Source: a virus
Taxonomy: Duplodnaviria; Heunggongvirae; Uroviricota; Caudoviricetes
Strand: one strand, 5' to 3'
Length of the DNA stretch: 41,713 nucleotides
Virus record (IMG/VR): IMGVR_UViG_2778261064_000003
Span: 1-41,713 of that record
Made by a program: the position numbers and the translations under genes
The notes under the pieces: model-generated
Told to the model about the DNA's origin: nothing
Seen by the model: the letters and a program-made list of their open reading frames with translations, nothing else
The model's database searches: none
Part shown: piece after piece, positions 29,281-29,657 of the stretch
How positions within the stretch are numbered: position 1 is the first letter of the stretch
Layout: each line of letters opens with the position of its first letter

Positions 29281-29553
29281 TTATGCCACCTTACGAGCGT
29301 AACGGCTGGGCCAGATTTCCTCCGGTGCAACACCAATAGCATCAGCAATAATGCGCTCATACTTGGGGCATTTGCGGTACAGGGCATTCTTTAAAGAATC
29401 CTGGTTTAAACCTGCTTCAACGGACAGTGAGCGTAAAGTAAAGCCCTTCACATGCACCGCCGCGACAACATGCGCGGGGTGCCAGTCCTGTTTAACAACT
29501 TCATTTATAGACATCATTCGTTTATCCTTAAAAGTTATCTGCGCGGATAACAC
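29281..29553 (-). CDS. ner: Ner-like DNA-binding regulator (Ner/Nlp family); start probably ATG 29517
   Basis: C-terminal IIADAIGVAPEEIWPSRY resembles the Mu Ner motif IIANALETKPEVIWPSRY; stop overlaps the transposase start. Confidence 0.75.
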   Translation of the reverse strand: MLSAQITFKDKRMMSINEVVKQDWHPAHVVAAVHVKGFTLRSLSVEAGLNQDSLKNALYRKCPKYERIIADAIGVAPEEIWPSRYARKVA

Positions 29554-29576
29554 CGCCGGATAATCTCTACAGATAA
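29522..29576. promoter_or_regulatory. Candidate operator array in the repressor/ner divergent region
   Basis: Seen directly: TTATC at 29522 and 29535 and GATAA at 29546, 29559 and 29572, phased every 13 bp, including the palindrome TTATC-N6-GATAA (29535..29550). Confidence 0.4.
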
Positions 29577-29657
29577 ATATTTGATCACTACAAAAGAAAA
29601 GTAAAGGTGTTTTACCTCTTTCTTTGGTGGTTTTTATCTACTAAAGGATATTTCTTT

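Follow-up and report, generated by a model that had tools for sequence, protein, structure and literature searches.

A dyad-symmetric half-site array between the repressor and ner genes of a Mu-like prophage, probably serving as operators of Ner

A cluster of GATAA/TTATC half-sites lies between the divergent repressor and ner genes of a Mu-like transposable prophage, and we propose that these half-sites are probably operators through which the Ner-family protein throttles the early promoter. This reading is drawn from comparing the region and its encoded proteins across related elements. An earlier note on the same DNA had interpreted the half-sites as operators of the lysis-lysogeny switch, serving both the repressor and the Ner-like regulator. 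The type of region is as described and the half-sites are very probably switch operators, but binding by the 194-aa repressor is not supported. This operator is undescribed in the literature that we searched. Most likely, the array is an unremarkable component of a Mu-type lysis-lysogeny switch whose sequence had not been described before, and the known picture of how such a switch works is unchanged by it.

Throughout, the window refers to the whole stretch of 41,713 nucleotides that was analysed. The following genes frame the array:

27191-30242 (within this interval), minus strand: Mu-type transposase, 695 aa, with PF09299 and PF02316
29281-29517, minus strand: ner, Ner family, 78 aa, with PF13693 (HTH_35, E = 4.8e-25) and phrog_769
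29658-30242, plus strand: immunity repressor with a CI/XRE-type helix-turn-helix, 194 aa, with PF07022 and PF01381

The ner and transposase genes on the minus strand diverge from the repressor gene on the plus strand. Among structures in the PDB, the Ner protein matches EnrR (7F9H, 3.6e-17) and Mu Ner (1NEQ, 6.3e-13); the gene immediately downstream of the array thus encodes a Ner-family protein, as expected of a Ner-type operator. The repressor matches the transcriptional repressor profile phrog_3037 (E = 1.8e-49) and is of the CI/XRE type, not of the Mu c type. Taken together, these genes place the half-sites in the control region between the repressor and ner of a Mu-like transposable prophage. 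Positions 29200-30300 of the window share 97.7% identity with the Yersinia phages vB_YpM_5 and vB_YpM_6 (MT374853 and MT374854), and of 5426 complete E. coli genomes, 12 contain the repressor-ner region.

The half-sites begin where the earlier note had placed them, with TTATC at 29522 and 29535 and GATAA at 29546, 29559 and 29572, and the palindrome TTATC-TGCGCG-GATAA that it reported is present at 29535-29550. The 13-bp spacing that it also described is not strictly regular, the actual intervals being 13, 11, 13 and 13 bp. Read as hexamers, three of the sites are GGATAA/TTATCC, and the array resolves into repeated half-sites with dyad symmetry, as expected of a Ner-type operator in an early leader (positions preceded by a sign are relative to the inferred early transcript):

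29522-29527, minus strand: lone half-site GGATAA, about +44 to +49, overlapping the ner Shine-Dalgarno sequence AAGGA (29529-29525) and 13 bp from the proximal dyad
29535-29550, no strand: proximal dyad O-prox, TTATCT-GCGC-GGATAA, an exact match to TTAYCYN4RGRTAA, about +21 to +36
29558-29563, plus strand: extra half-site GGATAA, which contains the GATAA at 29559 and is lineage-specific
29561-29576, no strand: distal dyad O-dist, TAATCT-CTAC-AGATAA, with one mismatch to the dyad pattern, about -6 to +10

The cluster is real and not a product of chance. GATAA/TTATC occurs 93 times in the 41.7-kb window (2.2 per kb), and this array is the only place in the whole window where at least three copies fall within 55 bp. 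In Markov-1 simulations modelled on the AT-rich region itself, at least five sites per 140 bp arose in 0.011% of cases (P about 1e-4). Furthermore, the dyad TTAYCYNNNNRGRTAA, with up to one mismatch allowed, occurs in the window only at 29535-29550, at 29561-29576 and in an isolated copy at 3044, against an expectation of 0.44.

To examine how the array is kept among relatives, related elements were gathered via the Ner protein, and the leaders upstream of ner were then aligned. The relatives come from Escherichia, Edwardsiella, Salmonella, Yersinia, Morganella and Serratia. One layout is common to Edwardsiella hoshinae, Salmonella, Yersinia, Morganella, Serratia and a second E. coli element, whose Ner proteins are 59-80% identical to that of the window. 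More specifically, the plus strand carries a TTATCC half-site on the ner ribosome-binding site, followed after 7 bp by a 16-bp dyad and after a further 10 bp by a second dyad, which precedes GATC and a -10-like hexamer. The conserved unit therefore comprises two 16-bp dyads of the form TTATCY-N4-RGATAA, 26 bp apart, plus the lone half-site. Invariant columns are more frequent within the half-sites (20 of 30) than in the other positions of the array (9 of 25; Fisher p = 0.03). Every relative whose Ner belongs to the D[ST]LKNAL clade keeps O-prox, which reads TTATCC-GCGC-GGATAA in E. hoshinae. O-dist takes forms such as TTATCC-CTAC-GGATAG (E. hoshinae) and TTATCC-GTGC-AGATAC, always 10 bp from O-prox. 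The lone half-site appears as GGATAA, GGATAG or GGGTAA with position and spacing unchanged, and its conservation could be due in part to the ribosome-binding site.

The GATAA at 29559 is confined to the window type, the E. coli O111 type and E. anguillarum; at this site the other relatives carry an inverted GTTATCC, 2 bp further on. This half-site is thus lineage-specific and flipped elsewhere, and the 13-bp regularity is not conserved outside the E. coli / E. anguillarum lineage. Loss of the spacing in related elements had been named by the earlier note as grounds for refutation, and the outcome is divided: the 26-bp dyad interval and the 13 bp to the lone half-site are retained, but the 13-bp step through 29559 is not, so that the array does not seem to be organised by 13-bp phasing. 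A 22-bp palindrome can also be drawn from the inner halves of the two dyads; in E. hoshinae it reads GGATAACAC-GCAG-GTGTTATCC. The Yersinia version, GTATAACAC-GTGA-GTGTTATAC, carries a symmetric double change, which favours pairing as a 22-bp central palindrome. A clean reading with two dyads only was dropped once later relatives showed this alternative. Judged from the aligned leaders, the pairing of half-sites appears ambiguous, with the 16-bp dyads and the 22-bp central palindrome equally valid.

The array lies next to the presumed early promoter, which was placed solely by alignment with relatives:

29577-29605, minus strand: inferred early promoter Pe, driving ner, A and B, with -35 TTTACT (29605-29600), a 17-bp spacer and -10 AAATAT (29582-29577)

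Promoter prediction, which the earlier note had named as a check, returned no site scoring at least 9/12 in the window; a candidate is present at the position aligned with the promoter-like sites of relatives. In Serratia this position holds TTGACA-17-TATTCT (10/12), and in Morganella and E. coli O111 it holds TTTACA-17-AATACT (9/12), in each case directed at ner and without a second promoter-like site in the intergenic region. The window Pe itself scores weakly, at 7-8/12. We estimate that transcription would start near 29570. The array begins 1 bp downstream of the Pe -10 and covers the inferred start, not the -35 or the spacer. Accordingly, it occupies the stretch between the inferred early promoter and the ner start codon, where a Ner-type operator is expected and where Mu and D108 are arranged likewise. 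A GATC (Dam) site at 29583-29586 abuts the inferred -10 and is kept in nearly all relatives (GGATCAATACT), which hints at methylation-sensitive promoter activity.

The -35 and spacer of Pe are instead covered by inverted repeats that are specific to the repressor cassette. In the window they are:

29587-29599 and 29619-29631, no strand: inverted repeat ACTACAAAAGAAA / TTTCTTTGGTGGT, bracketing the Pe -35, candidate operator of the repressor

Such cassettes came to light in three independent mosaics, in E. coli, Morganella and Salmonella, in which the DNA-binding domain of the repressor has been exchanged jointly with the stretch upstream of the -10. The pairs compared were the window type against E. 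coli O111:H2 12A, JCKP02 and FDAARGOS_1059; Morganella L008 against L010; and Salmonella L089 against L088, which encode an identical Ner protein. The cassette extends from just upstream of the Pe -10 to the N-terminal DNA-binding domain of the repressor and includes about 75-100 bp of intergenic DNA. Within it, identity falls to 30-60% in each pair. Between the repressors, the N-terminal domains are 51% (E. coli), 38% (Morganella) and 46% (Salmonella) identical, and the C-terminal 70 residues 74%, 73% and 99%, respectively. Over the array, ner and the 5' end of A, the same pairs keep 97-100% identity. The O111 cassette has inverted repeats of its own (GATCCACATG/CATGTGGATC), arranged around the -35 like those of the window, and so do the Morganella cassettes of L008 (CCAAATCAGGACT/AGTCCTAATTTGG) and L010 (ATTGAACCCA/TGGGTTCAAT).

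Operators of an immunity repressor, such as Mu O1-O3 or lambdoid OR/OL, would be expected to co-vary with its DNA-binding domain in heteroimmune relatives, and the array does not. That the array stays constant while the repressor domain and the -35 repeats swap is the pattern expected if the repeats belong to the repressor and the array to Ner. The candidate operators of the repressor are likely the cassette-specific inverted repeats around the -35 (29587-29631).

The mosaics also bear on the main alternative, that the array is an operator set for the 194-aa immunity repressor, or for it as well as for Ner, in the manner of Mu O3 or of operators shared by CI and Cro. We consider this unlikely. 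The array does lie in the repressor-ner intergenic region and adjoins Pe. Moreover, every array-bearing element encodes a repressor of the same family and all repressor variants retain the motif STLNNY in helix 3, so that a target common to the variants is conceivable. However, S-[ST]-L-x-N-x-Y is to our knowledge a motif found throughout PF07022 proteins, whose operators are unrelated. Three exchanges of the repressor domain, at 38-51% identity, have left the array unchanged, and the -35 DNA changes with the domain and bears inverted repeats of its own in each cassette. On both counts, the assignment of the array to the repressor by the earlier note is not supported.

In contrast, the array is passed on together with ner and tracks the Ner clade, as a Ner-type operator should. 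All 25 loci whose Ner protein carries the recognition-helix signature D[ST]LKN[AV]L have one to five TTAYCY/RGRTAA hexamers in the 70-nt leader, where 0.18 would be expected from background. Among the other Ner loci, the hexamers are absent in 45 of 60 and present in 15. Because the array-bearing elements all have a repressor of the same family, this correlation with the clade cannot separate Ner from the repressor, and only the mosaics do. We found no ner of the D[ST]LKN[AV]L clade that lacks an adjacent repressor, all Sodalis and Arsenophonus copies included.

In the mechanism that we favour, Ner would accumulate once the early promoter fires. Proteins of the Ner family are monomeric and pair up on palindromic DNA, and Ner would occupy the distal dyad (-6 to +10) and the proximal dyad, within the first 50 bp or so of what is presumably the early (ner-transposase) transcription unit. 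Bound there, Ner would block RNA polymerase and thereby limit expression of ner and the transposase; it would probably also silence any rightward repressor promoter overlapping the array. The immunity repressor would work elsewhere, on the cassette-specific inverted repeats around the -35. Both the binding of Ner to the array and its effect on transcription are inferred from the half-sites, their conservation, their place beside a conserved promoter-like element and their inheritance with ner. Control of repressor synthesis by Ner is conjecture: we found no convincing repressor promoter, and the best candidate (8/12) is made of the half-sites themselves.

This candidate gives rise to a second alternative, namely that the half-sites act mainly as hexamers of a promoter running rightward into the repressor gene, TTATCT being its -35 and GATAAT its -10, and not as protein operators. 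The half-site at 29558-29563 together with the next T does read GATAAT, a -10-like hexamer directed at the repressor gene, and TTAYCY-18 bp-GATAAT at 8/12 is found in the window, E. anguillarum, Morganella and Serratia, at differing half-sites. However, two hexamers suffice for a single promoter, whereas five or six are conserved here, in alternating orientation; GATAAT is absent from the E. hoshinae and Salmonella elements; and 8/12 is under the threshold of the scan. As the main role of the half-sites this is rather improbable, and it is compatible with, not opposed to, the Ner-operator model.

A host-factor site, be it a set of DnaA boxes (TTATCCACA), a Fur box or an IHF site, is very improbable. 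TTATCC does correspond to the first six bases of a DnaA box, and by inspection GATCAAATATTTA is similar to the IHF consensus WATCAANNNNTTR. Also by inspection, however, the best 9-mers reach 7/9 to TTWTNCACA where 8/9 is required. DnaA boxes would be broken by the hexamers TTACCC, TTAACC and TTATAC of relatives, which also fail to conserve the CACA part, and the motif follows a Ner clade over six genera. DnaA, Fur and IHF were rejected by this inspection and by the hexamer variation in relatives.

We give scarcely any weight to the possibility that the array is a transpositional enhancer for the N-terminal domain of the transposase, like the internal activation sequence (IAS) of Mu. The transposase carries the Mu DNA-binding domain PF02316 and the array is inherited together with the ner-A module, but the same dyads persist upstream of ner in loci without a Mu transposase, and the transposase end sites here are AGTATCAAAT repeats, unrelated to the array. 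The enhancer was rejected on the retention of the array without a transposase. Finally, RNA hairpins in the ner leader, acting in translational or stability control, are hardly credible and were rejected: the dyads lie within the inferred 5' UTR and RNAalifold places hairpins on them, but the fold is unexceptional (z = -1.35, with 16 of 200 shuffles folding equally well), the covariation term is -0.2 kcal/mol, and the same hexamer in all stems plus an unpaired copy suggests recognition by a protein rather than pairing.

The Ner-operator reading can be compared with characterized systems. Mu Ner is a negative regulator of early transcription. The operators of Mu and D108 were identified in their GenBank records through what we take to be their consensus sequences. 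In Mu, as inferred here, a dyad-symmetric site separates the early promoter from the ner start codon, beside a Ner-family gene. The Mu operator, AGCTAGCTAAGT-N6-ACTTAGTTAAAT at 1029-1058, directly follows the annotated Pe (991-1028); the GenBank record annotates 991-1028 and 1063-1101 as early promoter or part of the Ner binding region. It has no sequence similarity to the array. The Mu site is a single inverted repeat of 30 bp, its half-site centres 18 bp apart, whereas the array combines two dyads of 16 bp, each with centres spaced by 10 bp, with extra half-sites over a span of 55 bp. The recognition-helix signature likewise differs (DSLKNALYR in the window Ner, TTLANALER in Mu Ner), as does the partner repressor, which is CI/XRE-type in the window and c-type in Mu.

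D108 carries an inverted repeat, CCGTGAGCTAC-N8-GTAGCTCACGG, at 996-1025, 25 nt before ner (ATG at 1050), with half-sites that differ from ours in sequence and spacing. Its Ner is reportedly a monomer that oligomerises on DNA. Between D108 and Mu, ner and c differ jointly, whereas in the family of the window the repressor cassette is swapped without ner. The title of Benevides et al. 1994, as cited in PMC10434027, names a 61-bp operator, a size close to that of the 55-bp array.

The closest solved homologue of the window Ner is EnrR, a Ner-like protein of Edwardsiella piscicida (PDB 7F9H/7F9I). Two EnrR monomers sit on one palindrome with helix-turn-helix contacts in the major groove, and EnrR is also found on the DNA that precedes its own gene (PMC9023278). 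EnrR differs in preferring an AT-rich 15-bp palindrome (AATAAATNATTTATT) on which the monomers are closely packed, and in being a global H-NS antagonist; its base-contacting Arg47 aligns with Asp40 of the window Ner. Position, symmetry and gene neighbourhood are thus those of a Ner operator, and sequence, spacing and half-site number differ.

Yersinia phages vB_YpM_5 and vB_YpM_6 have the same repressor, array and ner as the window, and in both, the three genes are annotated as hypothetical proteins. These phages are described as Mu-like in PMC10434027, where a term search found no description of operators.

Our analysis provides a testable operator map for widespread, uncharacterised Mu-like prophages of Enterobacterales, including Yersinia pestis phages. 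The map comprises a candidate Ner operator consensus (TTATCY-N4-RGATAA), the early promoter and likely repressor operators. The mosaics suggest that immunity in these prophages evolves by the swapping of a compact cassette, the DNA-binding domain of the repressor together with its operators, around an unchanging Ner circuit; such exchange is relevant to superinfection immunity and to cross-talk among co-resident prophages. More tentatively, and as a possibility that we would not favour at present, this prophage family may have a two-tier switch, in which a swappable immunity cassette (repressor DNA-binding domain plus operators) is set on a constant backbone of Ner and array that heteroimmune phages share, and the half-sites may also be the -35/-10 hexamers of the repressor promoter. 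If so, the Ner of one phage could regulate, in trans, both the early and the repressor promoter of a resident prophage that is heteroimmune to it, as a form of cross-talk or anti-immunity, and the transposase-less repressor-ner pairs of Pseudescherichia, Enterobacter and Citrobacter relatives would be domesticated bistable switches.

One such transposase-less pair, with related dyads, lies between the lysyl-tRNA synthetase and amino-acid permease genes of Pseudescherichia, Enterobacter, Pseudocitrobacter and Citrobacter (loci L012-L025, for example L018 2291-3228 and L013 2265-3216), and looks like a fixed, possibly domesticated remnant of a switch. In a separate set of loci from E. coli and metagenome contigs (L090-L092), a Ner 79% identical is accompanied by a repressor and a dyad array, and the neighbours are a tyrosine integrase and an acyltransferase, not a Mu transposase. 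This integrase-type setting indicates that the module of repressor, Ner and operators moves between different kinds of mobile element.

Several further features were observed around the repressor gene. An additional TTATC (TTATCTACTAAAGGATAT) at 29635-29650 lies on the ribosome-binding site of the repressor gene and is kept as TATCTAC-N-AAGGATA in the same-cassette relatives L002 and L005. Its gap from TATC to GATA is 8 bp, not 6 bp, and it could be a weak additional Ner site affecting repressor expression. Four of the six copies of the AAAGAAAG octamer in the window fall within 120 bp (29618-29737), a cluster that extends from the -35 region to the first 27 codons of the repressor gene; similar AAAGAAA/TTTCTTT motifs reappear in otherwise unrelated cassettes of relatives. 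These octamers may be extra repressor sites, or reflect a Lys/Glu-rich coding bias. In the Salmonella repressors (L088 747-1334 and L089 656-1321), the interdomain linker is a PQQ repeat of variable length, with about 4 units in L088 and about 13 in L089.

The left end of the Mu-like prophage falls at about 30475, inside a lambdoid tail-terminator gene (30404-30754, minus strand) whose match to phrog_37 is restricted to profile positions 2-96 of 133. Beyond this broken gene lie a lambdoid tail-completion gene and a head-closure gene, which indicates that the transposable prophage was inserted in another prophage. AGTATCAAAT occurs in three direct copies (30304-30313, 30346-30355 and 30450-30459) in the interval that separates the repressor stop codon from the end of the prophage; these copies are probably transposase end-binding sites (attL). 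No inverted copies were found elsewhere in the window, so that the right end of the prophage probably lies outside it. The -10 region of Pe, GTAGTGATCAAATAT (29589-29575, minus strand), is similar to the AGTATCAAAT sites save for one inserted base.
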